A stretch of 64,000 bases of DNA from Yuukianura sp. NJ FZ-2021 (GCA_046563655.1 CM102289.1:2604001-2668000); one strand, 5' to 3'. Positions 1,063 to 30,000 are shown, counted from the stretch's first letter. Notes: generated from the letters alone by a model not told the origin. Program-made: numbers and translations.

Positions 1063-2846
1063 ATGGGGTCAGACAGCTCGCAGAACCGAGTTGTGGCGTA
1101 TTTCTATGACGGCGATGTTGGTAACTTCCACTATGGCCCACGTCACCCAATGAAGCCTCATCGTCTCACCGTAACGCACAGTCTTGTCTTGAATTACGGA
1201 CTGGATAAGAAGATGCAGTTGTACCGCCCATACCGCGCCTCGTCTCACGACATGTCCAGGTGAGGTAAAATTTAAGGCGGGTTCAGCAATTCAATAATCA
1301 ATCAATGACATTTCGATTTCAATGTTCTTGCGATGGAGTGAGAACAATATATATTGTTTAACATGCGTATCTTTTTTTTTTAGGTTTCACTCCGAAGAGT
1401 ACGTGGAATTCCTTCAACGCGTCACACCGCAAAACATTCAAGGATTTAGTAAAAGTCTCAGCTCGTTCAACGTAGGTGACGACTGTCCAGTTTTCGATGG
1501 TCTCTTTGACTTTTGCTCCATGTACACTGGAGCTTCCCTGGAAGGAGCTGTGAAAATCAACAATGAAGATTGCTCAATTGCAATCAATTGGTCAGGAGGT
1601 TTGCATCACGCGAAGAAAACGGAGGCCTCCGGGTTTTGTTATATCAATGATATTGTAATAGCCATTTTAGAACTTCTAAAGTACCATTCACGAGTTCTGT
1701 ATATCGATATTGATATTCATCACGGTGATGGGGTTCAAGAAGCATTTTATCACACTGATCGCGTGATGACCGTGTCATTCCACAAGTATGGCAACTACTT
1801 TTTCCCTGGTACCAATCCATCTTTTACTACATTTTTACTCTTGATTGTATTTGTTCAGTGAATTTGGAGACTCGAATTTCTTTGATTTTGATAGGCACCG
1901 GTGACATGTACGAGTTAGGGTCTGAAGGCGGACGCTATTACTCAGTAAATGTTCCACTCCGTGAAGGGATTGACGATGCCAGTTACATGCAGATATTTAA
2001 ACCAATCATTCAGGTATTTATTGTGTTCAATAGGACAAGAAAATTGACCCAGATCAGATCCAATGAACTTTTTACGTTGCCGGCTGGGTATTGAATTCAA
2101 ATTAATAATGAATTTGCCTTCATTTTTCAGAGTGTAATGGAGTACTACCGTCCCACAGCAATCGTGTTACAATGCGGAGCAGATTCTTTGGCAAATGATA
2201 GACTCGGCTGTTTTAGCCTTTCGGCCAAAGGCCACGGGTTAGTTTCTGATGATTAGTATATTTGCTTTTAAATTTTGACATTCAATTAATCGTTTGCATT
2301 TTCAGAGAATGCGTCAAGTTTGTGAAAGATTTCAACGTTCCACTGCTGGTGTTGGGTGGTGGTGGATACACTCTGCGTAATGTTGCACGCTGCTGGACTT
2401 ACGAGACTTCACTACTTATCGACGAATCCATCAACAATGAATTGCCTTACACAGGTACTAGGCACCGCAATATCGAATCGTTGAAGTTGAAGTAGTTTCT
2501 CATTTAAATCATGTTATTTTTAGAATATTTTGAGTACTTTGGACCCGACTTCACCTTACATCCTGAAATCGTGACGAGGCAGGACAACGCCAACACAAAA
2601 CAATACTTAGACCTCATAGTAAAACATACTGTTGAGAACTTGAAGATTCTGGAGCATGCGCCTAGTGTTCAATTCCAAGATGTCCCTCCGGACTTGCTGA
2701 ATTTGGACATTGTCGAGGAATCTAATCCTGACGAGAGAAAAAATCAGACTGAGGAGGACCGAAAAATTGATCATCCAGCGGAGTTCTTTGATGGCGAAAA
2801 AGACAATGACCAACAACAAGGTACCAAAGGAAAGGCGGAGGTATGA
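1063..2846 (+). CDS. HDAC3: Histone deacetylase 3 (class I HDAC), 6 exons, ~439 aa
   Basis: Exons 1063-1259, 1384-1808, 1895-2013, 2131-2237, 2306-2454, 2524-2846 join in frame with GT-AG introns. Motifs [60 protein letters not shown] and [12 protein letters not shown] fit the HDAC3 subtype. Confidence 0.97.
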
Positions 2847-6800: not shown

Positions 6801-7155
6801 AAGTACGGAAAGTAGTTTGCTACTTTATGTTTTTCTCCGAATTTGTCTGTCCGTCTGTGTGCTAGTCACTATACATCAGGAACCACTGGACCGATTTTCA
6901 ATCTCCCTCGGCCGATGAATTTCAGACGATCGGGGAGTGATTGACCGGAAGTGGCCAACTTCCGGTCACCCTCATAAGCCTATGTGTACATTTCTGTATT
7001 TACATAAGGCGTTTAACAGCTAACGCGCGTTAAAAAAACTGGTAAGCAAAATATAAACAACTTTTTAATTATATAATGCCAGTTTTCTCGTAAGCAACAG
7101 TTACAACTTTCTCTTCATCTTCATATATTTTTTTAATTGGTGACGCTACTACTCG
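6801..7155 (+). mobile_element. Helentron/DINE-1-like element, approximate ends
   Basis: aagtagtttgctacttt hairpin, tgtctgtccgtctgt microsatellite, accgatttt core, gctacta-like end motif. Confidence 0.45.
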
Positions 7156-7624
7156 GAAATGAAAAATTATTTATCCTCGACGTTTTGCGGTTTGGCATAA
7201 CAGTATCCGGGTGACTTTACTCAATTAGTTTGACGGCTTTAGCTGACGACCTACCGCACCATATGGTTACAACAAGAAACCAAACCACGAAGAAAAACGT
7301 TAATAAACTTTAACAAAACTTAAAAAAAAATTAAAACCTTTAGCTAAAAAAGCATTTAATTGATCGCGAGTAAAAACGTTATAGTCCAAATTCATATTTA
7401 TATTAAGGAGGCAGTAACGGATTTTATGAAAAGTTTTTTCTTTCAAACATTTGAGGCAAAAAGTATTGGAGTTGGACAAAATTAAAATTCGTATTTCTGA
7501 AGTAATATTTGTTGTCCAATGGAACGTTGAAGGCCCTATCAATTTGAACTTAATCAAAGCGGGAAGTTTAGTTTGACCGAGGCTGAAGTAATTGGAGCTC
7601 ATGATTAATCAATTAAATTTAACG

Positions 7625-7631
7625 TATAAAA
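7625..7631 (+). promoter_or_regulatory. TATA box of secreted-protein gene A
   Basis: TATAAAA about 90 nt upstream of ATG 7718, conserved at the equivalent position (13001-13007) in paralog B. Confidence 0.6.
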
Positions 7632-7717
7632 TGTGCAGGAAATTGTAATGTGAAAATTGATCATCCGCCTATATTTTCTTGTAATAAAAACTCATACAGA
7701 AAAGTAGAATAGACATT

Positions 7718-8587
7718 ATGACCAAGTGGTTTTGCCTTGTGGCCCTTGTGGTAAGTATTTATTTTTTTTTGTTTAAAACAGTGTTTACGACGTTGTGACA
7801 CAAAACGAAATTTTGAATTTTAATCAAAGAAAGAAAGAAAGTTAATTTTTAACTAATTTTTTTTATAGGCATACACCAACGCTGGTGTTGTTAAGCGAGG
7901 ACTTGCTGACTATCTGGGTAAGTTTCACAATTTAACTTTCAATCTTGCTGCAAGATTCCTTAAAAAAATGTCAATTAACCTAATAAAATATGTAACACAG
8001 GCTATAAAATTAATGGAAACTTAACCTTGTTTGTAAGTTGGAACCATTTCTAATTTTGGAAGCAGTGTTTTGCCAGAAGAGTCGATGCGAAACGGCTGTG
8101 CTTCTGTCGGGCTATACAACCGAGAGAAGGACGGAAGCCCACCACGGAGAGATTCCAATGGAGGACTCTGTAAGTTCAAATTCAAAAATGGCGCAATTTT
8201 GCGATGAGTTTGAAATGTGTCATGCCTTTCGGACAGAAATAACCGTATATTGATTGTGTTTAAGCCGGTATGGTTGGTAGTGGATTGGCTCAATTCGGCG
8301 ACACTATTTTCTCCAAAAGTGGGATGGAAGAGGGCTGCATGAACGCTGGATTTTACGATCCAAACCTAGACGAAAACGGACAACCCAAGAACCAGGGACA
8401 ATTCAAGGCACCATGGGCTCAAGGCGGAGGCTCTGGTCAGATGGGAGGTGGAACAACGAACTTCTACTTGAATGGAGGAGGTCAAGGTCAGCAACAACAG
8501 ACCAAAAAGAAGACCTTCAAGTGCTTCCGCAACGGAGTTCAAGTAGAATGCGACGCTGCAACTATTGCGCAAGCCAACGGAAAGTAA
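7718..8587 (+). CDS. Secreted Gly/Gln-rich precursor of unknown family, paralog A, 4 exons, 178 aa
   Basis: Exons 7718-7750, 7869-7917, 8038-8169, 8265-8587 in frame. Signal peptide MTKWFCLVALVAYTNA, then GVVKR, four Cys after the KR site, C-terminal GK. Exon structure identical to paralog at 13098. Two acceptors are AAG. Confidence 0.85.
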
Positions 8588-8894
8588 ATGATTTAGCACA
8601 GCATTGATCCACTTCATCCTGCTGAAGCAGTCCACAATGGATTAATTATTTATCGGATTAATTACCAAGTATAAATCAGAACAAAATGTAAACCATAGAA
8701 AATATGAATCACAGTGTTTTGTGTTACTCTGGAATTCCAAATTTTCATCTCTAGAACATGAAAATACTTAATTAGCACAAATTTTCAAATCCTATGAAAA
8801 GGCTACCGAAAAACTTGAACGCTTCTATGACTCTTAGCAAAACTCGGTTTGGTTTCCCGGATGGTAAAAATCCGCAAGTTGAGTCTACAAGCAT

Positions 8895-9370
8895 GAATTA
8901 GTATAACCGATTTTCAATTTGTCTGCAGATTCAGATGAACTTTCACATAGTCTGGAGGTGCCAAAAATAGTTTTTAATTATGTCATCCTATTTCTATCAG
9001 AATTCCTTTTGAATGTCATATTTTCTTGAAATTGGCAATGTTATTTTCGTCAAATGAAAAATTATCTATCGTAGACGGTTTGCGGTTTGACATAAACAAT
9101 CCAATTGGCTCTGCTCAATTAGTTTATTGGTTTTACCTGACCATTTATCAGAACCCGGTAACAACATTAAACCAAACCAAACTGACAAATTTAATTTCAG
9201 AACAACATTGAAATACATATCAAGCTGTTGCAGTGAAGGTAGTTAAAGACGAAGACGTACGCCAACGCAGGAGTTGTGAAGCGAGGACTTGCTGACAATT
9301 TTAGTTAGTTTCATAATTTAACTTTGTTAATCTTTTTAGAAAATTTCAATCAAATAATAAAATATGTAAT
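8895..9370 (+). pseudogene. Relic of secreted-protein gene: upstream block plus isolated exon 2
   Basis: 8895-9240 aligns with 12521-12860. 9256-9370 aligns with exon 2 (YANAGVVKRGLADNF) and the following intron of 13228-13350. Exons 1, 3 and 4 are absent. Confidence 0.85.
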
Positions 9371-9509
9371 GCAAATTTCAATCGCCATTTTTTCAGAACT
9401 GCATGCCTAGTTCAATTTTCAATTTTGCAATTTTACTTTTGTGTAATATGTTAACAAAGAGGTAAACCCTCAAAAATTTAAATAGTTACTGACAAGCATA
9501 GTTGAACGT

Positions 9510-9990
9510 AAACAAGAAATTTTCCATTATGCAGGAAAACTTCTTTTCAGATAAATCTTTTGTAACCTATAGTAATCTTAGCAAAACTCTGTTCAAACTA
9601 AATCGGTTTTTTTGTCGTTGTATTCCTAACTATTTTTTTCAGCCTCAATGACTTGCATAAAGCAGGTTCTGTTACGCCTTTTTTGTATCACATTTTTGAA
9701 ATTTTTATTTACGGTATGAGAAAACCAAACTAATGCTTAGCTAACAGCCCCGATTTTCGTAAAAAGCCGAAGTTCTTACTCTCGAGGAAGAAACGGACCA
9801 GCATTGAAGACAATGTCGACGAAATTGCAGGTGAAGGTGATACGTTTCCTGTTAAAAACACATTCAAAATTGAAACTCGCTCCGTTTTTAGTGAAAAAGC
9901 CGGTACACTAAAACCAAATGAGGAATTGTTAAGGAGGTAATTGCCTTTGCAGAATTTTTTCTTGCAACGTTTCAATACTACGTAGTTATG
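9510..9990 (+). pseudogene. 5' fragment of the GR-like gene (relic copy)
   Basis: Aligns with ~18900-19418. ATG 9813 gives MSTKLQVKVIRFLLKTHSKLKLAPF versus MLTKLQMEVIHFQLRTFSKLKLAPF, then frameshifts and stops. Confidence 0.85.
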
Positions 9991-10440
9991 TGTTTGTTTT
10001 TGCACTTTGTTTTTAACTGTATTAATTGATATTATAATAATTGCAGTTAACCTCGGCTAATATGACAAAATCAAGAAACAAAATCGTCATTTTATTTAAG
10101 AGGTAGTTATAATTACCGGAAAATTGGATGCATGACTACAGAATAGCATTACATATATTATGCATATTATATATACAACGATTAAATTGAAGAAATGAGC
10201 TCAGGAGCTTCCAGAACATGCGTGAAATAAACTTCCAATTAAATTATATTAATTAAATTGTGGCGTCATTAGATTAATCAAGTAAGTCATTATAATCATC
10301 ATTACTTTCAACTGCAAATGCATAAATTACAGTTTCAAATATAGTTAATTGTTAAGAAAAGGTATAACTACCTGAATTTCACTGAACAAATTGCATCACT
10401 TTTAACAATTTTGTGCTTCTCAATCCTACTTCACCACTTG

Positions 10441-11661
10441 CTATCCAAATAAGGCAGCATAGTCCTCGGGGCAAAAAGCTGAACCTAGTCTCGATTTCAC
10501 GAGCTCTGTCACATTACGAGAATTCATCAACTTTTTAAAACGATCTCTCGCATCCCCTTTTCTTCTGATGTTATTTGTACAGTCAAGACAAGTTTTACTC
10601 TTTTCTGTATTACAATTGTGATTTGCAAAAGATATTTTGATTTGCGATGAAGGAACCTCTAAGTCATTTTCAAATGTTAATTCTGGGTGAGTCCATTCGC
10701 CATCCTCACTGTAAGATAGTGTCCAATCAAATGTCTTAATGTCAATTTCATTGAGTGGGGTTAGACCATCCCCATCATAATTAACGACTGCGAACTTTTT
10801 AGGAGGCGGGGTACTCGATTTTGGGATAAGCATGGCTTGGGAGTACTCGTATTTGTATTTTCTCGTCCCGAGCACATAACCTACGTTGAGTAATCGTGGA
10901 ACAAATTGAATAGGAAACTCAAAAATGATTGAGCCGTAACGATTCTCTTGGACGTATCTTTTGGCTAGTTGAGGTATACCGCTGATCTCGTTTTCGTCGA
11001 GAACAACACCACACCAAACATAGGTCGGCGAATCGCCCGGATCACTAGAAGCCTTTCCGAAAGTAATCTGTTGATCCATGATCTGAATAATTTGAAGTGC
11101 GTTATCAATTGATGTGGCATGCCGCAAAAGTCGTTGTGGATGTAGCTTGATATTAATAGAAAAGCTCGTGTCCGGATTTCGTGCTTCTGGCCTGACCAGT
11201 TCGGAGTCTTTTACAAAGTCCAGTGAAACTGGTGGTTGTGGCCAAGATACAATAGTGGGACCTGCCAGTTCGTTACGAAAGTGTCGGTTCCATAAACTAA
11301 TCACATGCGCAATTTTCATCATTAACCTTTTACTACTTTGTAGTTGCCATTGAGTAGACGCCCATTGTTCGCATAGTTGTAAAATTTGGCCAAGGTAATA
11401 CGTCGGTTGCTGATTTATGTCAATTAGTTGGTTCCAGGGACCAAGAACTGGCCCAGCAATCGCAACGCGTGTCGCTTCTATAATGTTCGAAGCTAAAAGG
11501 AACTTCATTGGTGCGGAAAGTTCAACCTCCGCTTGCTTCATTGTCGTCAACAGTCCTTCTACGGCCATTCTGCCATGTTGGTACGATTTGTGACGTGCAT
11601 CTTCAAGTGTATTTGCACCCAGAATCACTTGAGCAACAATATCCAAACCATCGACTTCCAT
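10441..11661 (-). CDS. Orphan 406-aa protein, intronless CDS; putative ADP-ribosyltransferase-like fold plus His/Cys-rich tail
   Basis: 1221-bp open frame in AT-rich DNA. Likely 5'UTR splice acceptor (tttctag) at ~11704 on the minus strand. Motifs LRHATSIDNALQII, YVWCG, NRYGSIIFEFP, GTRKYKYEY, WTHPE, HNC..CLDC. The ORF is well supported; the function is inference. Confidence 0.75.
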   Translation of the reverse strand: MEVDGLDIVAQVILGANTLEDARHKSYQHGRMAVEGLLTTMKQAEVELSAPMKFLLASNIIEATRVAIAGPVLGPWNQLIDINQQPTYYLGQILQLCEQWASTQWQLQSSKRLMMKIAHVISLWNRHFRNELAGPTIVSWPQPPVSLDFVKDSELVRPEARNPDTSFSINIKLHPQRLLRHATSIDNALQIIQIMDQQITFGKASSDPGDSPTYVWCGVVLDENEISGIPQLAKRYVQENRYGSIIFEFPIQFVPRLLNVGYVLGTRKYKYEYSQAMLIPKSSTPPPKKFAVVNYDGDGLTPLNEIDIKTFDWTLSYSEDGEWTHPELTFENDLEVPSSQIKISFANHNCNTEKSKTCLDCTNNIRRKGDARDRFKKLMNSRNVTELVKSRLGSAFCPEDYAALFG

Positions 11662-12236
11662 TGTTGTTGAGATTATTGTTGAGTCGGCTTTCTAAGTCGT
11701 AATCTAGAAAAAAGTTGCAGTTATTAGCAGTACGTTGTTTCAAACAGGTTGATTTATACCATATGGCATGCGCTACCTTTTAACAAAATGCTTGTTGATC
11801 AATCCAAAAAAAATCCGGCGAAATGTTCGGGTTGAAAAGCTAACTAAAAGCTACCCTAGACAGGATTAAACTTAAGTAATAAAAATAATCAACCTAATTA
11901 ATTTTAATAAAACTAGTTAAGTTTTACCTTTAACTGCGTAGCCACGCGTCAAATGAATGTGAATAAACCACATCGAAATGAAACTTATTTATGCCAACTC
12001 GGCCGTTGTTCCCAACTTGCAAAAACGAAATTCGACATTATCTCGGCAATGGGCAGCAAATGTGACGCAAATAACATAATCTTCCAAGATGAATGATAAT
12101 AAACCGATTGTAAACCGCGCATAAAAAATGACTCTCGAGATAAGGTGGACCTTTTAAAGCTAACTGAGCGTCTCGCCACTCCGGGAATGACGTACCCCAC
12201 CCCCTTTTTTCACCCCCCCCCCCCTTGTTTTTTTCT

Positions 12237-12506
12237 CATGAAAAGACAAGAAAAATGGCAGTGTAATAGATGGTTTTCATATAGCATACAAAGCGCGGGG
12301 ATTTGTAAATAAAATTACGTCTTCGGGGCAAATAAAAGTGCAATTGAAACGGATGATGTTAGAGAGTAGTAACAGGAATTCAGTCGTAACTTTGTGTCCT
12401 GGTACTTTGCTATCTTCGATTTGATCAACGTGTGTCAGGGCGTCTTCATCTTCATCATCTTCGCTTGCAACAAGTCTACTCTTCTCTTGCTCTAAGCTAA
12501 GTACCC
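12237..12506 (+). pseudogene. Internally deleted relic of the Methuselah-like gene
   Basis: 12237-12380 aligns with 14249-14391 (upstream flank) and is fused directly to 12378-12506, which aligns with the TM7 exon 17435-17563 and carries a CAA>TAA stop. Confidence 0.88.
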
Positions 12507-13097
12507 CTAAATAAAATAAAGAATTAGTATAACCGATTTTCAATTCGTCTTCAGATTCAGATGAACTTTCACAATGTCTGGAGGTGCCAAAAACAGTTTT
12601 TAATTATGCCATTTGTATTTCTATTAAAAGTTCTTTTGAATGCCATATATTCTTGAAATTGGCAAAGTTATGTTCCTGAAATGAAAAATTATCTATCGTA
12701 GACGGTTTGCGGTCTGACATAAATAATTCAATTGACTCTGCTCAATTAGTTTATTGGCTTTACCTGACCATTTATCAGAACCCGCTAACAACCTTAAACG
12801 AAACCAAACTGACAATAATTGTGGACCAGCATTGAAATACAAATTAAGTTGTTGCGGTGAAGTTACTTTATTGGAAAGAGGAAGGCGAACTAGTAAATGA
12901 AGTGAAGAAAATTGGCTCTATCAACTTGAACTTAATTCAAAGCGGGAAGTACAATTTAATAAATTAATTGGAGTTCATGATTAGTCAATTGAGTTTGACA
13001 TATAAAATAGACGGGAAATTTTGAAATTGATTAGTCACATATAATTTTCCAATTGACTTTAACAAAAACACCGAAAAACAAAAAAAAAAAACATATT

Positions 13098-13918
13098 ATG
13101 GCCAAGTTTGTTTACCTTTTGGCCCTTGTGGTAAGTTTTTTTATTAGATAGAAAATAATAATGTTTTTGTAATTCAAAATAAAATTTTGAAATCCATTCA
13201 CAGCAATTAACTAATTTTCTTTTATAGGCGTACGCCAACGCCGGCATTGTGAAGCGAGGACTTGCTGACAATTTTGGTTAGTTTCATAATTTAACTTTGT
13301 TAAGTTTTTTTTTTTTGGAAAAATTTCAATTAATATAATAAAATATGTAATTTCAAAATCAAGCACTTCTCTTGTTTGTGGCGCAGTTGGAGCCATTTCT
13401 GATGTGGGAAGCACTGTTTTGCCAGAGGATTCAATGCGAAATGGCTGTGCTTCTGTCGGACTGTACAACCGAGAGAAGGACGGAAGCCCACCACGCCAAG
13501 GTTCCAGTGGAGGTGGACTCTGTAAGTTCAAATTCAAAAATGGCGCTATTATACAAACAATTTGAAATGCTTCCTGCTTTCCCGCCAGAAATGAGCATAT
13601 ATTGATTGTGTTTCAGTTGGAGCGCTTGGTGGTGGATTGGCTCGATTCGGCAACACTCTTTTCCCAAAGAGTGGCATGGAGCAGGGCTGTATCAACGCTG
13701 GATTTTACGATCCAGATCTAGACAAATACGGAAAACCTAAGTACCAGGGAGGTCAAGGAGGTTCTAGCCAAATGGGAGGTTCAACCACAAACATCTACGT
13801 GGGTGGCCAACGTCAAGGTCAACAACAACAGACTACCACGAAAACATACAAATGCATCCGCAACGGACTAACAGTACCATGCGACCCTGCAACTCTTGCG
13901 CAAGCCCAAGGAAAATAA
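13098..13918 (+). CDS. Secreted Gly/Gln-rich precursor of unknown family, paralog B, 4 exons, 172 aa
   Basis: Exons 13098-13130, 13228-13276, 13387-13521, 13617-13918 in frame: MAKFVYLLALVAYANAGIVKRGLADNFVGAISDVG...KTYKCIRNGLTVPCDPATLAQAQGK. TATAAAA at 13001. Confidence 0.88.
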
Positions 13919-15285
13919 GAATTTAAACCAGCATGGATTCACTTCACCCTGCTGAACCAGCACGCCAATACTTAATTACTTAAATTATATTGGCAAATTG
14001 ATACTATACAAGTTGGCTTAAAATGTGAACCATAAGAAATATATTTCAGTCTATTTTTTGTTGCTCTGCAACAACTCCGAATTTTTCTTTCCAGTTTTTA
14101 AAAATAAAAATTCTTACTACATTCTTCCAAATTCTCTGAAAAGGCTACCGAGAACCTAAAAGTTTTACGGCTTTCGCTTGTCGGATGGTAAAAAATCAGC
14201 AATAATGCGCATGTGCTAATAGGATTGTGCACGTTCTGCTGTATTTGTATGAAAAAGGGAAAGAATTGGGTTTTGTAATAGATGGTTTTAATATTGTGTC
14301 CAAAGAGCGTGGGGTTTCAAAGTGAAATTAGGCCTCTGTGGCAAATAAAAGTGAAATTGAAACGAATGATGATGGAGAGAAAACAGGAATTGGAGAAGAA
14401 TAAATTACAGACCTCACCGCAATTAAAACACTATGTGCATACTATGACTTTGTGCAATTTAGAAGCTGGTTGCAAAATTGTTTTTCCAAAGAAAGTACAT
14501 TCATTGCTCGTGTGGTGAACATGTAAAGTTGTTGTTTTTTTTTTGAAATTTTTTGAAAACTGTTTCTGAAAATTCAGTTCCGTGTGTCTCACTTCTTGTG
14601 TGAATTTGATTAAATTAGAGTGAGATGTTATCCGTTTTCATTAGCCTTGGGAATTACGTGTGCCTCGTGTCATAACTCCAATTAGACGGTGACACATCCT
14701 ACGTGATCCACCAAATCCCAACTGCTCATGTGCATTACTTTCTTCTTCGAAACTGGTTTTTAGATGTCTTCAAAGAAACAATTTGTTGAGTTTATACAGT
14801 GTTAACCAATCTTCAAACTCTCATAAATCAAGATTAAGAAATAATCCGCTCTGCAAGTCTGCTGGAATTGGCATATAAAATGTCGTCCAGATACCAAAAA
14901 ACGGAGTTAGTTGATTTTTGGGCGTCAGCTTTATAAACAGCGGTAACTTTTTTTTTGTAGAATTTTGTAAAATTCACGAATTTCGAGTGACGTAGGATCC
15001 AATTTTGGGCTATTTTTAATTTTTAAACGCAACCCCACTGATGTGTAATTCCCTTGGGGCATTACGGGTCATGCAACATGGGAGTGGCTTCAAAGATCAA
15101 CTTTTGTAAATGAAGTAAGTGGGGGTTCGTCTTTTGGCTTGGACATGTTTATGCAAAATGTTAGAAAATTTTGGAAATTTTGCTTAATTAGTAATAGAAG
15201 TATCTGTGAACTACAAGAAAGGCCTTGCGTAGTGGCGTTTGGGAAACAATGTGACTAAAACGTGAATGTGCGAGTAGTTTCAGGA

Positions 15286-17892
15286 ATGAAAACAATTATT
15301 TGGTATTTGTTTTTGACCTTTGACCTCACAATAACTACTCAGTTGGCTGTACAAAGTTGTTGCCCAACTGATCAGTATTATTATAATGGTACTTGTGCAT
15401 TATCATCAGAAAAAGCAAGTTCACACATCATCGATGATCTCTTGTTCAACTCCCAAATTCAGTAAGATTTAAATTATTATTTGATTTGAATAAATTAACT
15501 AACTCAAGTTATTTTTAGTGTAAATGACCGTATCAGTCCGTTTTCATGCAAAGACGGGTCATCTACCATTATCACCTCAAATGTAACAGAAGTCAATGAC
15601 ATTATCTCAAAGGTCACTCAAACAGGATTTGAGGGCTGCATATTCAAGTGAGTGACACAAACTAAGGTGAAGTTTGTAAATTGTGTGACGAAAAGTTTAG
15701 ATTTTTGTAACATACTTTATTTTTTATAACATGTTTTAATTAATATCATATTATTGTTTTTTCAAAGAGATCCAAATGACAAAATTGGTGTTTATGAATG
15801 CGGGAATGCTAAGAGGTGCAGTTTGGATCGCCGTGAACGGAGTCTTTGTTTACCAAAATGTTGTGAATTGGGACAGCTTCTGAGTATTTCTGAAACTAAG
15901 GTGGGGTGTGTTGAGACTGATTTGGAATGGACTCCCGCCATTTTCAAAAATGTTTGGACACCAGTCGACCAACCAACACCGGTCCAATGGAATATTTCTC
16001 CACCGCGCACACTCTGCTCCGAAGGAATTTTATACTTCCAAACGCCGTATCTGCATTACCCAAAAAATTTGTAAAGAAAAAAAATTCTTGTAACCTCATA
16101 CTATTTTTTTTTTTTGATAAATTTTGAAAAGTTGAATTTTTTTCTTTGATAGATTTCGTGTAATGGAGGATGGTAGAGTGATTCACAAAGAGAGATCTCA
16201 TTGGTTAGAAATTCCCGCGGGTGCGTTCTGTCTTGAAGGAATTTTTCCCCAGAACGGGTCAAAGGTCAATGACCTTGTGTATAGATGTTTTGAAACAGAT
16301 ATGGAGGTAACTTCAAAACTGGAAGAATAGAACTTCATGTGAAAATTGAACTGAAAAATTCCATTTTTTTTTGTAGGAACATATCTACGAAGGTTTTTCC
16401 ACTTCAGTTGAGTACAAACTTGGTATCACCGTTGGGTGCTACATTTCCGCTTTCTTTGTTTTGCTGACGATCATCGTGTACTTACTTTTGTGGGAAGTTC
16501 AAAATATCCACGGATGGACACTACTCTGTTCCTTCATTAGTCTATTTTCACTCTATGTTCATCTGGGATTCATGCAGGGCTACCACGTTATTTGGGGAAC
16601 GGATGCAAACAACAGAAATTTTTTCTGCTGGATCATCGGTAAACTTAAAAAAAAATTTCTTTAGAAAATTTAAAATTTTAAAAATTTAAAGTGTTGCTGT
16701 TTTGTAGGTGTTGGGCTTCATTTCTCGTATTTGAGCTTCTTCTCCTGGGCGTCTGTTGTGAACTTTGACCTCTGGTTTACATTCAGGAACATGCGTGCAG
16801 TGCATCAAACTAAACGCAAATGGCGTCGTTTTTTGAAATACGCTGTGGCGGGATTCGGAATTCCTGTTGCCATCACGGGACTGTCCGTTTCATTTGACTT
16901 TGTTTACAGAGGAGATGAGTTGGCTGAATACGTTTTCCCAGATCCGGACTATGGATCAGACAAATGCTTTTTGGCTAGAAACGAATCTCCAATTGCTTAC
17001 TGGCTCGGGCCAATCGGATCTCTCCTGACAATTAACATCATCTTCATCGTTGTCACCATCTCTTCTGTATACAAGGCTCAGAAGACAGCTAGTATTGCAG
17101 TCACCAACAGCTCGCGCAGACACAAGCAATCGTAAGTCATGGTTACTCGTTTCAGTTGTAGTAAGCGAAAGCTACTTTATGCAATAACCTAGTCTGTCTG
17201 TCTGGTTGTCCGTCTGATTCGAATTATGACGGTTTACAGCCAGGCCAAATTTTATCGGGTCGAAAGTAAATTTGTCTTTCGCTACTTGGGTAACGCCCAG
17301 TTATCATCGGATTATAATTTACATAATTTTGAATTGAATTGAGTTAATTAAAATAACAATTGCAGGTTGAAGTTATTTGGGAAGTTGTTGGTGGTGATGG
17401 GCGTTCTGTGGGTTTTTGATATCGTGTCGTTCGTATTCAGTCGTGACTTTGTGCCCTGGTACTTTGCTATCTTCGATGTCATCAACGTGTGCCACGGCGT
17501 TTTCATCTTCATCATCTTTGTCTGCAAGAAGTCTACTCTCCGCTTGCTCCAAGCTAAATACCCACACATTGCTCGTAAAACAAATTCAAAGTTTGGGTTC
17601 AAAATTTTAAAATCCAAACCAAAACTCAAATGGGCAATTTGTGTTGCAGGAATGAGCGCAAACGTAGGAAAGTGGTGGAATTCCAGCAGAGACTGCTGTA
17701 CCTACATCCCTAACCAGCTTCGAACCATTTACACGCGTAAATACTTCACTTAAATTTAATCACTCATTAAATTAACCTAATTGTAATTGTTTAAATTAAG
17801 CTATTATTTGTTTAGAAGGGAGTCGGCGAGTGAGTGCAGAGAGTCGGCGCAGTACTCAATCCGATCGCCCTACCGAACTGTCAACTGTGTAA
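15286..17892 (+). CDS. mthl: Methuselah-like (class B-related) GPCR, 9 coding exons, ~598 aa
   Basis: Exons 15286-15461, 15519-15647, 15768-16046, 16153-16306, 16377-16638, 16708-17131, 17366-17574, 17650-17736, 17816-17892 in frame. Signal peptide, SCCP/KCCE Cys-rich ectodomain, QNIHG, FFSWASVVNFDLW, PDYGSDKCF, KLLVVMGVLW, GVFIFIIFVCK. Confidence 0.9.
17156..17303 (+). mobile_element. Short Helentron/DINE-1-like element in a Mth-like intron
   Basis: agcgaaag...ctttcgct inverted subterminal repeat, gtctgtctgtct microsatellite, 3' hairpin tgggtaacgccca. Confidence 0.6.
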
Positions 17893-18864: not shown

Positions 18865-19230
18865 GTTTGGACATATTACCTACATTATAGTGGGACATAA
18901 ACAAGTTCCTTTATGCAAGAAAATTTCTTGTCAGATAAATTTACAACGATAACCTACCATCAAAACTGTGTTCAAAGAGTTGTAGTACATAAATTTTGTC
19001 CGTTTGTTCTTGACCAATGTCGTCAGCTTCAAGGACCACACCATAACGCTGTGTCTGCTACGCCTTTCTCGTGTCAACATTTTTGAAGTTTTTGATTACG
19101 ATATGAAAAAAGGGAAACTATGTTTAGCTAAAAGCAATACTTTTTGTGAAAAGCCAAAGTTCGCACTCGACAAAGAAACCGATTGAATACATTTGTGGTT
19201 TGCCAACAGCAAAACTCAGCATTGAGGAAA

Positions 19231-20514
19231 ATGTTGACGAAATTGCAAATGGAGGTAATACATTTCCAGCTAAGAACATTTTCGAAATTGAAACTGGCTC
19301 CGTTTTCATACAATGAAAAGGATGGCACTTTACAAACAACTGATCAGCTGCTAAGGAACTCAAAGGTCATTGCGTTAGCTGAATTTTTCTTAGCAACCTT
19401 TCACTACTGTATAGTTATTCATGAAATTCGACTACCCACAACACCCGTGTTTAAGCAAATTTTAGGCTGGCTATCGTTGTTGGCTTTTGCACTCGCAATC
19501 TTCATATGTAGAATCAACTTAGTTTTACATTCACAGGAAATTGCTACTACTATCAACAACTTGTTCTACCTCAACAAAATCATACGTAAGTATTATAGAA
19601 AAACAGGCATTCAACAGGCAATTCTGTTTTTTTTTTCCACTTTTGAACTTACAAAAATTGAAAACTGAATAAAAATGTAAAAGGAAAATTTTAGGAACAC
19701 GCATGCGCAAAGAAGTAGAATTGCAAGAAATTTCTTTTTTGATGGTAATTTGCATGGGAGTAATTGCTGTTCCGATGGCGGCGTTTACTTTAGTGTACGT
19801 CATTCTGAACACTTTAATTTCGACGCCAATCCTTGCAGTTGCCTACTGTTTCATCACGCCAGCGCTGACTATTACCAGTGTCCATGATCTCCTTCTTCAC
19901 TTATGGGCATCCCTTTCACTCTTCGTCATTCCGTTCTGGCTACAACTGGCACTGTAAAAACGTTCTTTTTTTTCTTCATTTTTTAAAAATAATTTATAAT
20001 ATAAATTAATACATATTTTGAATGCAGGAATCAGTTTATTATACCAACACGGAGGAAATGGCAACCGGTTTCAATTCGAATTTATCGTATGATGACTGTT
20101 TTGACGGAAGTTGTCAATGTATCAATAGGGCGCGGTGCTGGTCCTGCGATAAAACTGATGCTCATGCTAAACGTAGTGATTCTAGTCTACACTGCAATTA
20201 GATTCACAAGGAATTTTGACATCATCCTCTTCGCATTTGCGATTCTGGATGCTGCGGGAATGCTCATAATCATTACAGCTGGCGTCATTGCCATGTCCAG
20301 AATATTCTACTACTCTAAAATGTTTTGGGTGAATATGTGCAAAGGGCTGCTGTCTACAAGCAGCAGAGAAAGAAATATGCTGCGCAGAAGCATAAATACG
20401 CTGGTCCCTCTGCGTTTCCGGATTGGTTCGTTTTATTACATAGAGAAAAAATCCCAACTCAAAATGGCGGACTTTCTTGTAAATGGAATAGCATTTCTAC
20501 TAATTAACTTTTAA
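19231..20514 (+). CDS. Gustatory-receptor-like 7TM chemoreceptor, 3 exons, ~366 aa
   Basis: Exons 19231-19585, 19695-19953, 20028-20514 in frame. Multiple hydrophobic helices. C-terminus PLRFRIGSFYYIEKK...FLVNGIAFLLINF resembles the GR/OR-superfamily terminal region. Confidence 0.72.
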
Positions 20515-21052
20515 ATTAACTAATTTGTAGCTGTTGCTGTACGAATGAAAACCTTGTTTTGTTGCCCTAACTTTTCCCTTTTAAACAAAAAAAAACAGAT
20601 GAAGGTGAAAAATATTTTCCTAAGTAGATGAATTAGTTTTAAGATAATTCCACTCAACACATTATTTAACATATTTATTAGCATATATAAATATTACATC
20701 GTATTTCTTTGAATTTGTGTAAAAATAAATAATGTTGGCTCATAAATTTTAGCCGAAAAATTTAATGCTGCCTAACTATAAAACACGGAAATCCTAGAAA
20801 TTACATTTTTAGGTCACAAGTTGACCTCAAAGTGGAAGGACAGTATTTCGTTAAAGTTGTAGGGCTTGCATTTTGTGTTTTTTTTTTGTGGTTGCAAAAC
20901 CAAGTTAAACGAGAGAGACTTACGGTGGTGATTGTGGTCAATAGAACCAATTACGCTCAATTAAGAGCAACTAATGCCGCTACTAATTATACACAATATC
21001 ACACCTTCAAAAATTTTCAGTTTCGGAGTTTCCGCTTCGAAGCACATCAAAA

Positions 21053-21847
21053 ATGTTCGTGTTGCGTTTGTGTTGCAGTTCGTGTTTCCCATCTACGACG
21101 GAAGTTGTTGGTGCGCAGGTCAAAGGAGCGCTAAGAGTAGTGGACAATGTTTCACAAGTCAAAGGTGAAATGGAGCCGCTGTTGGCTAGGGCTGAAGAAA
21201 ACGTAATTGCAATTGGGAGCGACCTTGCACAAAATGCAGCAATAGTTGGCACCAGCGCAGTTGAAAATGTTGCAAATGCTGGCAACACAGCAGTGGCACA
21301 TGCAGAAGCGGCTGGAAATATGGCCGTTGGCTATGCAAAAAATAGTGGAGCTGCAGCAGTGGAAGGTGCCCAATCAACTGCAAGTTCTGTTGAAGAAAAC
21401 ATTTCAAATTTGGGTGCAGAGCTGAAACACAATTTTGGCGACATGCAGCACACGACTGCCCAGAGTATCCATGACGCTCAAGCGACATTCCAGGGGATTT
21501 CCAAATTGGAATCTGATGCAGAAGCTACTGTGAAAGCTGTGAAGGATGAGCTTAGTGGACAGGCGGAAGCTGCAAATTTGGCGACAGAAGTTCAAGAAAC
21601 GTTGACTGACGCTACGGATGTTGCCAGAGACGTGGCTGCTGCTGGTAGTGATCTTCTCAGTTTGGCGGAAGAATTTGAGATAACAGTTTCCGAGGCTTCT
21701 GAGGATGTTTCTGAAATCGCGTCGTCATTTACTGAACATGCAATCGATACTGTATCAGCAGTCACGCCGGAGGCTGCAACTGATGCTGTTCAGAATGCCA
21801 TGACAACGCTAGCCTCCAGTGTTCCGACATCAGTACCTGGAATGTAA
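21053..21847 (+). CDS. Ala-rich acidic protein with 11-mer repeats (LEA3/perilipin-like architecture), 264 aa, intronless
   Basis: 795-bp ORF with coding-like composition, tandem 11-mers at 21257-21388 and an N-terminal CCSSC. Confidence 0.8.
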   Translation: MFVLRLCCSSCFPSTTEVVGAQVKGALRVVDNVSQVKGEMEPLLARAEENVIAIGSDLAQNAAIVGTSAVENVANAGNTAVAHAEAAGNMAVGYAKNSGAAAVEGAQSTASSVEENISNLGAELKHNFGDMQHTTAQSIHDAQATFQGISKLESDAEATVKAVKDELSGQAEAANLATEVQETLTDATDVARDVAAAGSDLLSLAEEFEITVSEASEDVSEIASSFTEHAIDTVSAVTPEAATDAVQNAMTTLASSVPTSVPGM

Positions 21848-22044: not shown

Positions 22045-23016
22045 TCATTCTAGGAACAATCTTGTCTGCGTAGAGTTGTTTGTAAGTTGTTGCTGCATTT
22101 GAAGTAGATTTGCAGTGTAGCAGCCATTGTAGTCTCGGAAATACTCTTGAAACATTTCACGTACGCCCAGTCTTGTGAAAATTTCTTCCTCAAATTGCGT
22201 AAGTACTCCAAGAGAAATGCTCAAACTTCCGTACGAGCTAAGAATTTGGCCAATGAGCTTCGCCAGTCTGTTCATAGGATGGAAAAAGGTGAGCTCGATT
22301 GTCCATGCCGCAAGACTCAACATCAAAATTGTATTGGTCGTAAACAAACCTAGGCGATTTCTCAGAATTAATATTAATTTTCTCATATACAAATATATAT
22401 ATAACATCAGCTTAACATGAATGTACGATTGATACATACATTGATATTACATATACTTACGTTCATGTTATGCTGGTACATAATCTAATATTATAACCTA
22501 CCCTATTAATATTATTATAGATTATACCTAAGTATGGGCCAATATTCATTGAGTATTGGATATCGTTGTAGTTAATTGGTATTCCGAGAATGTAAAAGTA
22601 GAAAAAGTCCCAAACGTTGTAAAAATTCTCCATGGCAGACGGAATAAAGTCTACCATAAAGTACAGAATGTCGAGTCCAGATAAAACGTTGCTCAAGTCA
22701 TCCATAAACATTTGGTAGCCATCGCACGATTCCGAAACATTCTGATCCTGACGCTGTTGCACAAACTGTCCAGAAACTGCACTCGAGCCACCCAAATTGC
22801 CGTCGATGTTTCTGAAATCCAAATACAAAGAGAATTCTGCGGGCTAATTGTTTTTGACATAATGTATTACGGATCATTTCTATATTTAAATATAAATATA
22901 CAACTATTGTAATATTATAGCCAATTTATAATAATATAGTTATTTAAATTTTCTAATATACCTTTGATTTGGAGGTCTGATGAAGGGAAAGTTGTTATGG
23001 TTGAGTGGTGCTCCAT
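22045..23016 (-). CDS. Unknown hydrophobic/membrane protein, paralog 1, 3 exons, ~222 aa
   Basis: Exons 23016-22962, 22836-22528, 22349-22045 in frame. Shares CDGYxMF, DFIP, WDF..FYILG, QFEEEI and YNxCY with the gene at 24068. Start codon uncertain. Confidence 0.72.
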
Positions 23017-24067: not shown

Positions 24068-24674
24068 TCATGTATTGTCAACAACGATCATTTGTGCTGC
24101 TCCTGTTCGCATACTTGCTTCCATTGCCATGAGCGTTTGGTTTGTGCTCATGGACATTTGTCTGAGTTTGGAATTGTAACAGTCGTTGTAGTTTCTGAGG
24201 TAATGTCTCAGCGTGCCCCGGATCCCAAGCATGTCTCCTAGAATTTCCTCTTCAAATTGACTGATTATTGCGACTGCCAGACTGAGGTTACCAAAGGACT
24301 CCGAGATGTAGTACCACAAGTAAATGACGCTCGTGATTGGTCTAAACAGGAGAAAGTCCACGAGCACTGTCAATAAACTGATGAGAGTGACGATAATGGA
24401 GATCAGAGATCCAGGCGACGGTAGCCAGAGTGCAATAGATTGAAGATCAACGTAGTTGAAGGCTAGACCTAAAATGTAGAATACCAAAAAGTCCCAAATT
24501 GCGATGAAAGTCTCTATTGTCAAAGGAATGAAATCGGTGACGAAGATGACAGAGTCGATTCCAAACAGGACCAGGCTCACATCTTCGAAAAACATAGTAT
24601 ACCCATCGCAGTTAGAGTCTGTCTGATTTGGATTTCGAAACAGCGATGCAGCCGACGAGTACTCGGATTTTGCA
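24068..24674 (-). CDS. Unknown hydrophobic/membrane protein, paralog 2 (main exon; 5' end uncertain)
   Basis: Frame is open from the acceptor at 24675 (AKSEYSSAASLFRNPNQTDSNCDGYTMFFED...) to the stop at 24068, with clear similarity to paralog 1. A possible first coding exon 24783-24713 would need an unusually short 38-nt intron. Confidence 0.75.
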
Positions 24675-25330
24675 CTAGAAAATAAAAAAATACACAGAAA
24701 TTATTGCCTCACCGCTGGCAAACGTTTCTTGAGCTAACACTTCTGCTGGAAAAGGCCACACAGAATTTTCTCTTGAAAATCATTGCCACGCCTCTCGCAA
24801 TCTTTCTTGGGTTCACAGAATCGCAGAAAAATAAAACGAAAAAATCGCTTTAGAAAATTATTGCTACATCTCTGGAAATGCTTTATGTGAGACTTTGAAG
24901 ACATACGAAGCGTTCCAGTTACCTGTGAGTTGAAGCGAGCGACTTGATTGGCTGACTGAGCAGTGTGATTGGCGTGTAGACTGGAAGTTGAAGAAGAATT
25001 AACAAAACGGGTAACGTGACATGGACAGCACGGGTCATGACGACAGTGGAGATGACCAATTCTGAGCCATGAGATCTTGATCAAGCGACGTTGTCAGGGA
25101 CACTATCAAACTTACAGAAAACGACGAATATTGGTCAGGGTGGACCCTGCTGCTGCTTCATACCTTCGCATTAATCATTTCATTTGTACAAAGCATCTTA
25201 TTGTATGAACTGGCACAAAAAGCCCAACAGATCCTCCATGTACAATCACCACTCCACTCCTCAAGTCCCACACAACAACGCAATTCAAAAAACGAAAGAT
25301 TGTGACCATTTTTTAACAGTTTTAAATCTA

Positions 25331-27052: not shown

Positions 27053-30000
27053 ATGGGTCTACAAACTTTCGTTTTTGTGGTTCTCGTACTGCTAACACAA
27101 GGTGAGACTTTCACACCAAAAAATGAATTTAAGAAACTAAAAATGACAATTTCGGCTAAATTTGTTTTTCAATTTTGTGCAATCTAGACCCGGTGAAGGC
27201 AAATCCAGACGCGAAATTACTGTATGACGAGTTGCTTACGGACTACAATCGGCTCATACGACCCATTGCCAATATGTCTGAGAAGTTAACGGTGAAGCTA
27301 GGGCTCAAGCTATCACAATTAATCGACGTGGTGAGAATTTATACCGGTCAATTAAAAAAATCATCAATTCTTGAAGTTTTTTCAGCAAGCTAGCGAGAGG
27401 TACAGAAGTTTTTGCTTAGTTTAAATCCATACTTTCTCCGTCTTTTTCTTTCATTTGATCTGCCGTGTGTATCGATCTTCTACTCTTGTTGTCTACCTTT
27501 TCAAAGTTATTTTCTCGACTCACGGAGCTTCTGAAGACAATGATCTTTTGAGTGCAAACACCCCATGAAATAAAAACACATCAATTTTTGATAACCCGCA
27601 AACAAAGATGCGACTGCGGTTGAGCAGAAAGGAAAGTTTTTTTTAGATTGAAGAAAGTTCCACTATGGCATGGGCCCTAACTTTAAACTTTGACAAATTT
27701 TCTCAACAAAAGTAACTTTCTTTGTTTTTTTTTAGCGTAAATTGCTTAGATTTAAAGCATTTGCGATAGTTTTAGTCACAATTTTGTTCATCTTTTAATT
27801 TTGGAAAAGAATTTGACTCGATTTTTTTTTGCTTAGAATTTGAAGAGTCAAGTAATGACGACTAACGTCTGGGTTGAACAAGTAAGTCCCGATAATGGAG
27901 AATTTGAAATTTATAATTCAATATGCAATTTGAAACTAAAATTTTGGATTTTTTTTTAGAAATGGATGGACTACAAAATGAGTTGGGACCCAAATGAATT
28001 CGGCGGTGTGGAGCAACTTTACGTTCCTTCCGAACACATTTGGCTTCCAGATATCGTATTGTTTAACAAGTAAGAACTTAAACTCAATTAAAATATTTAA
28101 TTTCATTTTGACTAATTTCATAAAATTATGTAATAACGAAATTACCATAATTTTAGTGCTGATGGAAACTATGAAGTCACCCTCATGACAAAGGCTACAC
28201 TACACTACACGGGTGAAGTCGTTTGGAAACCACCAGCCATTTACAAGTCTTCTTGCGAAGTACATCAGCAACTACCATTTTTTAATATCCATAAATTATA
28301 AATTATTTTATTAAATATTACAAACTATGTTATAAATTGATATACTTTATTTTCACTTTTTAGATTAATGTGGAATGGTTTCCATTTGACGAACAAAGTT
28401 GTACAATGAAGTTCGGTTCTTGGACGTACGATGGCTTCCAGGTCAGATATCAACTGTTTGCACTTCGACACTGTGGCATTGCGCACACTTGATTTTATGG
28501 TGACATTTTTTCAGGTTGACCTGCAACATACTGACCAAACTGCTGGAAGCAACTTGGTCCAAGTCGGAATTGACTTGAAGGAGTTCTACTTGTCAGTGGA
28601 GTGGGACATTCTGGAAGTACCCGCTAAACGGAACGAAGAATACTACCCGGGCATCGACGAACCGTTTCCAGGTAAAGTGTTTTGGCGGGAGTCCAGCATA
28701 AATTCACAAATATGAGTAAAATTCGCAATTAGCATTCAATACTTTTGGTACTTGCATTTTTTGAGGTACAGGAGTCCAAAAATCACCAAATTGTGCTTAC
28801 TATGTTCCTCACGCATCCGACTTGGTCAAACTTTTGGCCAATTTGTCTAAAATTTTCAAACCCTACAATGTATTTCTTTATTTGGTAAAGATTGCTACTT
28901 TTCGTAAAAGGAAAATGATAAACTGATATTTAGTCTTTTCAAATTCAAAATTAAAGTAAATCCGGAAGACAAAATTCTCAAAATACGAAATTTACAAAGA
29001 TGTACTGAAGAGCAGACCGATTTGTCATTGGGATATTTGAAATTCTAGAGCCCATTTCTGTTCTGTCAGTTTTTGTCCATTTTGTGCAAAAGTGCAATCA
29101 AAATGAAAGTGATTTCTTAGTCTCGGCAAAGGAATTTCGATCATTTTGATCACTTCCTATTTGGAAAGAGAAGTCGTACTCAAGTAGTAGGCAGGAAAAA
29201 AGAGAAAGTAGCGAGGGAATAGAATCCTTCCTTTGACAAAAACAAAAAATGTCTCCGGAATTGGCGTAATTACACCCATTTGTTACTTTTATGGGAAAAA
29301 CATGCTCAGCCTAACCCAAACTCCAATTTACGCTTAAAACCACTACTACTATGGTATCTTAGGTAGAAAGCCTAACCTAATCTAACATAGCCTGTTTCAC
29401 TTAAGTGCGTGTCCTGAAAGTCTGTGACCACCGAAACGGATCTTTCCAGGACAAGAAAATGTCTTTCAATATATTTGTCTCCTCCGCCTGTCTTTCCATT
29501 TGTCCCGTGTCACTCACAATTTGTTTCCGGTGTATCCTGTACATGTTAGGTCTTCTAACCACCAGCCAAATTGAAACTGGCGAAATCGAATCTAATCAGT
29601 TTGTGGTTGTTGATTTGCAGACATCACGTTCAACTTGACAATGCGACGGAAAACGTTATTCTACACTGTCAATTTGATTATCCCTTGCGTCGGAATTTCG
29701 TTTCTCACGGTGCTCGTTTTCTACCTGCCTTCTGATTCTGGCGAAAAAGTAACCCTCTGCATTTCCATTTTGCTATCACTCACTGTGTTTTTCTTGTTGT
29801 TGGCCGAAATTATTCCACCGACGTCGCTGGCTGTCCCACTTTTGGGCAAGTATCTCCTGTTTACTATGGTGTTGGTGACGCTATCAATCTGTGTCACCGT
29901 GGGCGTTCTCAATGTACATTTTCGGTAAGATGGTCAATACGTTCAGAAGTGTGGACATATTTCTGTAAAGTTAGTCTAACTGTATGATACAGTACAACTC

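Follow-up and report, generated by a model that had tools for sequence, protein, structure and literature searches.

The stretch of DNA discussed here, referred to throughout as the window, comprises 64,000 nucleotides (nt) of Yuukianura sp. NJ FZ-2021 (GCA_046563655.1 CM102289.1:2604001-2668000). On its minus strand, at positions 10441-11661, lies an open reading frame (ORF) of 406 amino acids (aa) plus a stop codon. It runs from ATG to stop in a single exon, is intact, and encodes the protein P0001, which belongs to a small eukaryotic family and may have the fold of the ADP-ribosyltransferases (ARTs). Counted from stop to stop, the frame is 416 codons long, which makes it second in length among the 21 ORFs of at least 120 aa in the window, and its start context, ACAACAATGG, is rated good. 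The gene is present in one copy: tblastn with 26 family proteins gave matches at E <1e-7 solely at this locus, and everything elsewhere in the window had E ≥0.13.

The gene sits in a rearranged region. The block of roughly 9990-12261 around the ORF has no self-match anywhere else in the window and is flanked on both sides by scrambled plus-strand pieces of neighboring genes. On the upstream side, 12262-12380 matches 14274-14391, and the receptor fragment that comes next (Table 1) is 88% identical at the nucleotide level to 17435-17563; the stretch 17352-17750 is the last exon of a secretin-type seven-transmembrane (7TM) receptor. On the downstream side, 9498-9990 matches 18887-19665. A scrambled local duplication, 66 to 88% identical at the nucleotide level, pairs 7121-9370 with 12262-14157 and 9498-9989 with 18887-19418, and its pieces are ordered differently from those of the intact arrangement at 14.2-19.7 kb. 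The initial annotation of this DNA had described an intact 406-aa ORF, antisense to its neighbors, flanked by pseudogene fragments, and missing from the intact copy, and each of these observations was reproduced. Could the ORF then be a decaying or never-functional frame within the scrambled duplication? The pseudogene fragments surrounding it fit that idea, but 416 open codons in DNA of 38% GC do not, nor does the good start context, and the motif residues that P0001 has in common with its relatives, which are only 17 to 37% identical to it overall, are all intact. We regard a dead frame as highly improbable.

No terminal inverted repeat (TIR), long terminal repeat (LTR), or target site duplication (TSD) of note was found around the ORF, where the inverted matches are all AT rich and at most 26 nt long. 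The initial annotation had likewise reported no TIR or TSD, and the mobile element that it proposed finds no support from such repeats. Its other proposal, horizontal acquisition, gains no support, as far as a recent event is concerned, from base composition. The ORF has a GC content of 0.42, in a window where 2-kb stretches range from 33 to 42%, and a GC content at third codon positions (GC3) of 0.37, within the 0.36 to 0.63 spanned by five further stretches of coding sequence in the window. What else is encoded nearby? Among the 79 of 132 stop-to-stop ORFs that were scanned (≥55 aa, 2-26 kb), the only domains found were Hist_deacetyl and 7tm_2, and there was no macrodomain, NADAR domain, transposase, or viral gene. 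An Rfam scan of 8000-14500 gave no match.

A few candidate expression signals lie on either side of the ORF. The initial annotation suggested short introns in the 5' untranslated region (5' UTR). The AG proposed as their acceptor (11705-11704) comes after a T run, and the GT proposed as a donor overlaps a TATAAA that, as far as its sequence goes, may equally be the TATA box of a promoter. Beyond the stop codon, an AATAAA is a possible poly(A) signal, although AT-rich DNA contains many such hexamers by chance. About 550 nt upstream of the ATG, at ~12200-12232, there is also a G-rich run that reads, on the minus strand, 11 G, A6, G5, T, G4.

What is P0001 related to? It had been called an orphan, and that label is wrong, because phmmer, run against 1.84 billion cluster representatives, recovered 26 relatives at E ≤1e-3 (7 of them at E ≤1e-10; best, 2.3e-22), with matches that span residues ~166-386 of P0001. 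Names were looked up for 20 of the 26. Among these, the springtail Folsomia candida contributes three loci, the heterolobosean amoeba Willaertia magna two proteins, and Acanthamoeba castellanii one protein; the others come mostly from metagenome collections or other assemblies. All the named relatives are annotated as uncharacterized or hypothetical, and a full-text literature search on their locus names returned no paper. No family in Pfam (models up to 2025) matches P0001, and none matches any of the 26 relatives at E ≤1. A word-indexed homology search found nothing with P0001 alone and two matches with the profile A1, namely, P0027, already in the set, and P0031. In a quick tree, P0001 groups with P0002-P0004 (Shimodaira-Hasegawa-like approximate likelihood ratio test [SH-aLRT], 93), and the family can be called fast evolving because the median end branch carries 1.2 changes per column. 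Judged from its sequences, this is a small, fast-evolving, eukaryotic family without a name.

Further searches covered prokaryotes, viruses, and metagenomes. A scan for close relatives with P0001 alone, a weak test, found none among the representative genomes of prokaryotes or in IMG/VR, and a scan of a metagenome contig collection with a subgroup alignment (A4), also a weak test, found no relative. A strict motif pattern, WTHPE..HxC..CxxC, picked out 1 viral and 26 prokaryotic sequences, all of which were rejected as chance matches: tblastn with the 26 family proteins at these 27 loci gave nothing at E ≤0.1 except one spurious 40-aa match (E 0.064). A pattern this strict would miss many true members and is thus weak evidence of absence.

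The motifs quoted in the initial annotation are all there, in the order claimed, and their coordinates were re-derived (Table 1). Except for the last of them, they lie, together with W313, which is conserved in 27 of 27 sequences, in a core that is preceded by a variable N-terminal region and followed by a tail with the H/C/C/C motif. The Zn-binding role that had been suggested for this tail fits its conservation. The H-x-C-x7-C-x2-C segment is probably a zinc knuckle, and we infer zinc binding from the near invariance of its four-ligand set. The very C-terminal tail of P0001 is shorter than in most relatives.

Table 1. The P0001 gene, its motifs, and its immediate surroundings. Positions are those of the window; conservation counts are from the family alignment A2 (28 sequences).
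Feature	Position	Strand	Remarks
7tm_2 receptor exon fragment, pseudogene piece	12379-12507	+	Upstream of ORF; 43 aa aligned with 17352-17750, 81% identical
TATAAA	11753-11758	-	92 nt upstream of ATG; overlaps GT 11759-11758, proposed as intron donor
N-terminal region, residues 1-165	11167-11661	-	Poorly conserved; predicted helical in low-confidence single-sequence model
Core, residues 170-345: conserved, alpha/beta, with an ART-like fold predicted	10627-11154	-	AlphaFold2 model and VIA-align matches
H181-A-T183, end of first core strand	11113-11121	-	Proposed NAD (adenosine-ribose) contact; H 17/20, T 17/20
YVWCG strand, aromatic-[C/F]-G	11008-11022	-	Family consensus GLxYCG; position 216: Y 15, W 9, F 2 (n = 26)
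N-R-Y-G, almost invariant	10933-10944	-	R241 25/27, Y242 26/27, G243 27/27
LGTxxYxxExSQ beta-hairpin, LGTRKYKYEYSQ	10837-10872	-	G265 27/28, T266 25/28, E272 27/28, S274 23/28, Q275 24/28
W-T-H-P-E strand	10681-10695	-	E327 proposed catalytic Glu; W323 24/27, H325 24/27, E327 20/27
H348-x-C350-x7-C358-x2-C361, candidate zinc knuckle, HNCNTEKSKTCLDC	10579-10620	-	H 27/27, C350 27/27, C358 27/28, C361 26/27; block pLDDT 84-95
C-terminal helices, residues 362-406	10444-10578	-	Model residues 239-276; block pLDDT 93-96
AATAAA, candidate poly(A) signal	10091-10096	-	345 nt downstream of stop
Fragments matching gene at 18986-19665	9611-9990	+	Downstream of ORF

Which fold might the core adopt? From the single sequence, AlphaFold2 (AF2) reached a predicted local distance difference test score (pLDDT) of 38.3; with the 28-sequence alignment, residues 130-406 were modeled at a pLDDT of 84.7 and a predicted template modeling score (pTM) of 0.85. 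An exhaustive structural alignment of this model with VIA-align placed DarT first and had DarT, Tpt1, and other ARTs as its top matches. DarT (DarT2 of Thermus and Mycobacterium, DarT1 of E. coli C7; PF14487) is the toxin of DarTG systems and ADP-ribosylates bases of single-stranded DNA. Among the 50 matches listed, 14 align over at least 99 residues, and all 14 are chains of the ART superfamily. The ART chains listed also include CopC, Thermosipho DarTG, E. coli DarT1, SopF, OspC3, and Scabin, as well as two diphtheria toxin homologues, Tne2, pierisin-1, and RhsP2. Two more of the 50 are Tpt1/KptA chains, aligned over 80 to 93 residues. The remaining 34 align over 46 to 88 residues, are mostly helical proteins spanning model residues ~55-277, and probably reflect the helices of the model. 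A feature search of the ESM Atlas with residues 165-365 ranked a phage cluster labeled "DarT domain / PARP 38%" first among named clusters (0.93) and rifampin ART (Arr) fifth (0.89); with the whole of P0001, the same DarT/PARP cluster came at rank 29 (0.90). We lean, with the balance tipping only a little in its favor, toward the view that the P0001 family combines a divergent, undescribed ART fold with a zinc knuckle, that it probably uses nicotinamide adenine dinucleotide (NAD+), and that it possibly acts on nucleic acid.

How do the conserved residues of the family compare with ART active sites? The mapping relies on where each alignment begins and ends rather than on residue-level superposition. 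The relevant residues are taken to be H862, Y896, and E988 in PARP1 and H440 and E553 in exotoxin A (ExoA). For DarT, the available text of PMC9967889 and PMC11543638 has H13, T15, and N19 of DarT2 and H17 and T19 of DarT1 in contact with the adenine-proximal ribose, and that of PMC9967889 gives the positions of Y71 and E160 in DarT2. In P0001, H181 is model residue 52, at the end of strand 49-54 and ahead of helix 56-64. The alignments begin at model residue 44 and chain residue 5 for 7omx (DarT2), 46 and 11 for 8baq (DarT1), 45 and 855 for 6bhv (PARP1), and 45 and 433 for 1zm2 (ExoA), and in 4 of 4 the ART histidine (H13, H17, H862, and H440, respectively) lands on model residue 52; the offset of 7omv is one residue off. 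Counted from the C-terminal ends of the aligned ranges, PARP1 E988 and ExoA E553 fall at model residues ~200-201. E327 is model residue 198, in the middle of strand 194-201 and within 2 to 3 residues of the mapped ART glutamate.

The spacing of the residues is similar as well. H181 and E327 are 146 residues apart, compared with 147 for H13 and E160 of DarT2; Y242 follows H181 by 61 residues, compared with 58 for Y71 and H13; and the aromatic position 216 follows H181 by 35 residues, compared with 34 for Y896 and H862 of PARP1. H181-A-T183-x3-N187 has the same spacing as H13-x-T15-x3-N19 of DarT2. The nicotinamide-stacking tyrosine has two candidates, position 216 (aromatic in 26 of 26) and Y242. 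The catalytic glutamate also has two, E327, with its matching spacing, and E272, an alternative without a place in the mapping. We infer the placement of 216, Y242, and E327 on ART positions from these offsets and spacings. For the H-Y-E (ART diphtheria toxin-like [ARTD]) enzymes, which include PARP1, diphtheria toxin, and exotoxin A, the offsets thus put H862 of PARP1 and H440 of ExoA on H181, Y896 beside 216, and E988 and E553 near E327.

A number of results, to which the coarseness of this mapping must be added, weigh against an ART. (i) The structural matches are weak. All the structural-alignment Z scores are below 5, and with Foldseek no match reached E ≤1e-3 in PDB (best, 0.087) or BFVD (best, 3.8e-3, to an unnamed entry). 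(ii) Sequence searches are silent. There was no match in PDB with P0001 or with the family profile, none to the Pfam ART families in any of the 26 relatives at E ≤1, and no DarT match or anything relevant in PADLOC. When hhalign compared family alignment A2 with DarT domains (24 matches in 22 of the 401 genomes taken from a single bacterial phylum, 14 of them aligned and 10 partial or weak ones dropped), the result was not significant (probability 0.2%, E 0.29, 14 columns); the sole alignment returned pairs HATSIDNALQIIQI with HFTDATNIPGILEA, the HxT segment. (iii) The top ESM match shares 136 of 256 features, compared with 170 typical of same-family matches, and because it falls below that level it is a lead, not proof. 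(iv) Some residues are not where they should be. E327 is replaced in part of the family (A in 3, T in 3, and V in 1 of 27 sequences), E272 is almost invariant yet maps off the catalytic position, and N187 is not conserved. DarT2 of Thermus has R51 about 38 residues after its histidine, whereas residues 214-219 of P0001 (YVWCGV; consensus GLxYCG) contain no arginine. (v) Neither a DarG macrodomain nor NADAR was found near P0001 among the ORFs scanned, although a eukaryotic gene would hardly be expected to follow such operon logic.

The ART-like core suggested by the initial annotation thus stands in part: DarT comes first in the structural alignment and the HxT and WTHPE motifs fall into place, while the Z scores, Foldseek, and hhalign against DarT give it no help. 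The route of AlphaFold and Foldseek that it had put forward yielded a confident AF2 model and, at E ≤1e-3, no match in either collection. Overall, its observations hold, apart from "orphan," and its interpretation is partly supported.

Might the likeness to ARTs be a chance arrangement of alpha and beta elements? P0001 would then carry a new zinc-binding domain with an unrelated role, such as nucleic acid binding or nuclease activity. Chance resemblance would be expected to yield mixed folds; instead, several distinct ART families occupy every long alignment. The language-model features, which come from an unrelated method, put the DarT/PARP and Arr clusters among the top named matches, and the conserved histidine maps onto the ART histidine in all four offset checks. 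We find chance rather unlikely.

A different possibility is that the fold is ART-like but transferase activity is absent, and that P0001 is instead a pseudoenzyme, a reader of NAD or ADP-ribose, or an enzyme of another chemistry such as Tpt1-like phosphotransfer or NAD glycohydrolysis. E327 is missing in 7 of 27 relatives, Tpt1/KptA chains make up 5 of the 14 entries in the structural listing behind the offset mapping, and Tne2, which we take to be an NADase, is also among the matches. P0001 itself, however, keeps the histidine, both aromatics, and the glutamate. Tpt1/KptA proteins are RNA 2'-phosphotransferases of the ART superfamily with a catalytic tetrad of Arg-His-Arg-Arg, for which the conserved columns of the P0001 family show no evident equivalent. 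Their structural alignments to the P0001 model are shorter (77 to 107 residues), and membership in their family (PF01885) was rejected, with no Pfam match and no evident Arg-His-Arg-Arg columns. A nontransferase is, in our estimation, unlikely.

Returning to the favored reading, an ART with a zinc knuckle, how close would P0001 be to DarT itself? Membership in PF14487 was rejected, since hmmscan gave no match and the hhalign result was as described above. From its sequence, P0001 is not a member of that family and would work, if at all, like an ART of the DarT/PARP type. The DarT motifs (the invariant Arg, FYF, RSPMLY, and AExLV) are not in P0001, where the conserved R241 lies 60 residues past the histidine, unlike R51 of DarT2. 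The P0001 family adds the NRYG, ExSQ, and W-x-L-x-Y motifs, the zinc knuckle, and an N-terminal region of ~165 aa. It is also eukaryotic and monocistronic, whereas DarT systems are paired with a DarG or NADAR antitoxin. Literature searches for eukaryotic or springtail DarT-like ARTs returned nothing on this family.

Other ARTs have been linked to DNA in animals. Pierisin comes from butterflies and CARP-1 from clams, and to our knowledge these few animal DNA-targeting ARTs belong to a clade other than H-Y-E. Theirs is the R-S-E clade, and their motifs and domain partners differ from those of P0001. In the available text of PMC9503650, pierisin and CARP-1 are DNA-targeting ART families, and ORF28 of baculo-, asco-, and iridoviruses is an ART family of the HY-[EDQ] clade that is said to be related to DarT. 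ORF28, compared here by description only, would resemble P0001 as we read it in being a DarT-like ART linked to arthropods.

Was the gene captured from a large DNA virus, or from another eukaryote, and later domesticated? The ORF28 family or a giant-virus gene would be candidate sources, and this origin is compatible with the other readings of the protein. The distribution of the family is patchy (springtails, two unrelated amoebae, and metagenome contigs), the gene is intronless in its rearranged region, and the arthropod viruses just mentioned carry, by the same account (PMC9503650), a relative of DarT. In the ESM search with residues 165-365, ranks 2 and 3 were Nucleocytoviricota clusters, one of them with 25% DUF5846, a possible hint of a giant-virus link for a family also found in amoebae. 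On the other side, the IMG/VR protein scan and the motif pattern gave no viral relative, the lone pattern match being due to chance; the GC and GC3 values of the ORF are within the host range; and its flanks yielded neither genes of viruses or transposons nor TIRs or LTRs. Capture seems an improbable origin, even if the giant-virus clusters and the patchy distribution keep a transfer scenario open.

Elsewhere in the window, several features are worth recording. Exons of HDAC3 lie at 1298-1861 and 2253-2492 (plus strand), and the exon sequence at 1385-1813 is 92 to 93% identical to that of Orchesella and 91% to that of Allacma, a small margin over the 90 to 91% of the best nonspringtail arthropods that nevertheless makes a springtail the probable host. 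A plus-strand frame at 20987-21847 encodes 286 aa, is alanine rich, and has only subthreshold apolipoprotein and apolipophorin-III-like matches. Three minus-strand frames (24071-24700, 22466-22843, and 22048-22446) have no Pfam match, carry motifs similar to one another (CDGY.MF..D.S.VL.G.D), and resemble membrane proteins encoded by tandem paralogs. Transmembrane exons of Cys-loop receptors are found at 41861-42397 (minus strand) and 35498-35920 (plus strand), with Neur_chan_memb matches at E 1e-44 and 3e-07, and diverged inverted repeats (28510-28648 and 43407-43545) lie near them. These repeats suggest that a gene of the nicotinic-receptor type was duplicated in inverted orientation. The longest frame in the window, at 52903-55398 (minus strand), is open for 831 aa, has hydrophobic, transmembrane-like stretches and no Pfam match at E ≤0.01, and could be an intronless gene for a divergent receptor or channel.

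How, then, might P0001 work? In the favored reading, the ORF would be a real host gene of a springtail-like arthropod and a member of a small, fast-evolving eukaryotic family, with a variable helical N terminus (1-165), a conserved, divergent ART core (170-345) of the H-Y-E type, that of DarT, PARP, and diphtheria toxin, and then the zinc knuckle (348-361), behind which short helices form the C terminus. H181 and T183 would hold the adenosine ribose of NAD+, and the aromatics at 216 and 242 would stack on the nicotinamide. E327, perhaps aided by R241 and the invariant E272, would polarize the N-glycosidic bond, and the ADP-ribose would then be passed to a macromolecule. Which macromolecule? 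By analogy, the best guess is nucleic acid, because DarT and Tpt1, the closest neighbors in structure, act on DNA and RNA and because the core carries a zinc knuckle. That the gene serves in conflict or defense is speculation, prompted by its patchy occurrence in springtails and amoebae and by the long branches of the family. Bolder still, and in our view doubtful, is the picture of DarT-like ARTs with a zinc knuckle that modify DNA or RNA bases in springtails and amoebae, act as immune effectors or toxins, have spread among soil eukaryotes, perhaps by way of giant viruses or DNA viruses of arthropods, and form a eukaryotic counterpart of the DarTG defense of bacteria.

ADP-ribosylation of DNA or RNA by DarT-type enzymes is a bacterial toxin and antiphage mechanism. 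Whatever its chemistry proves to be, the P0001 family adds one to the families for which Pfam, with models up to 2025 in the copy used, has no entry, and if the fold call is wrong, it is still a conserved, putative zinc-binding domain without an assigned function. If the call is right, springtails and amoebae would have a conserved family of the H-Y-E type that resembles DarT, eukaryotic genomes would come within the reach of this chemistry, and the P0001 family would be a candidate for a new effector in immunity or conflict.
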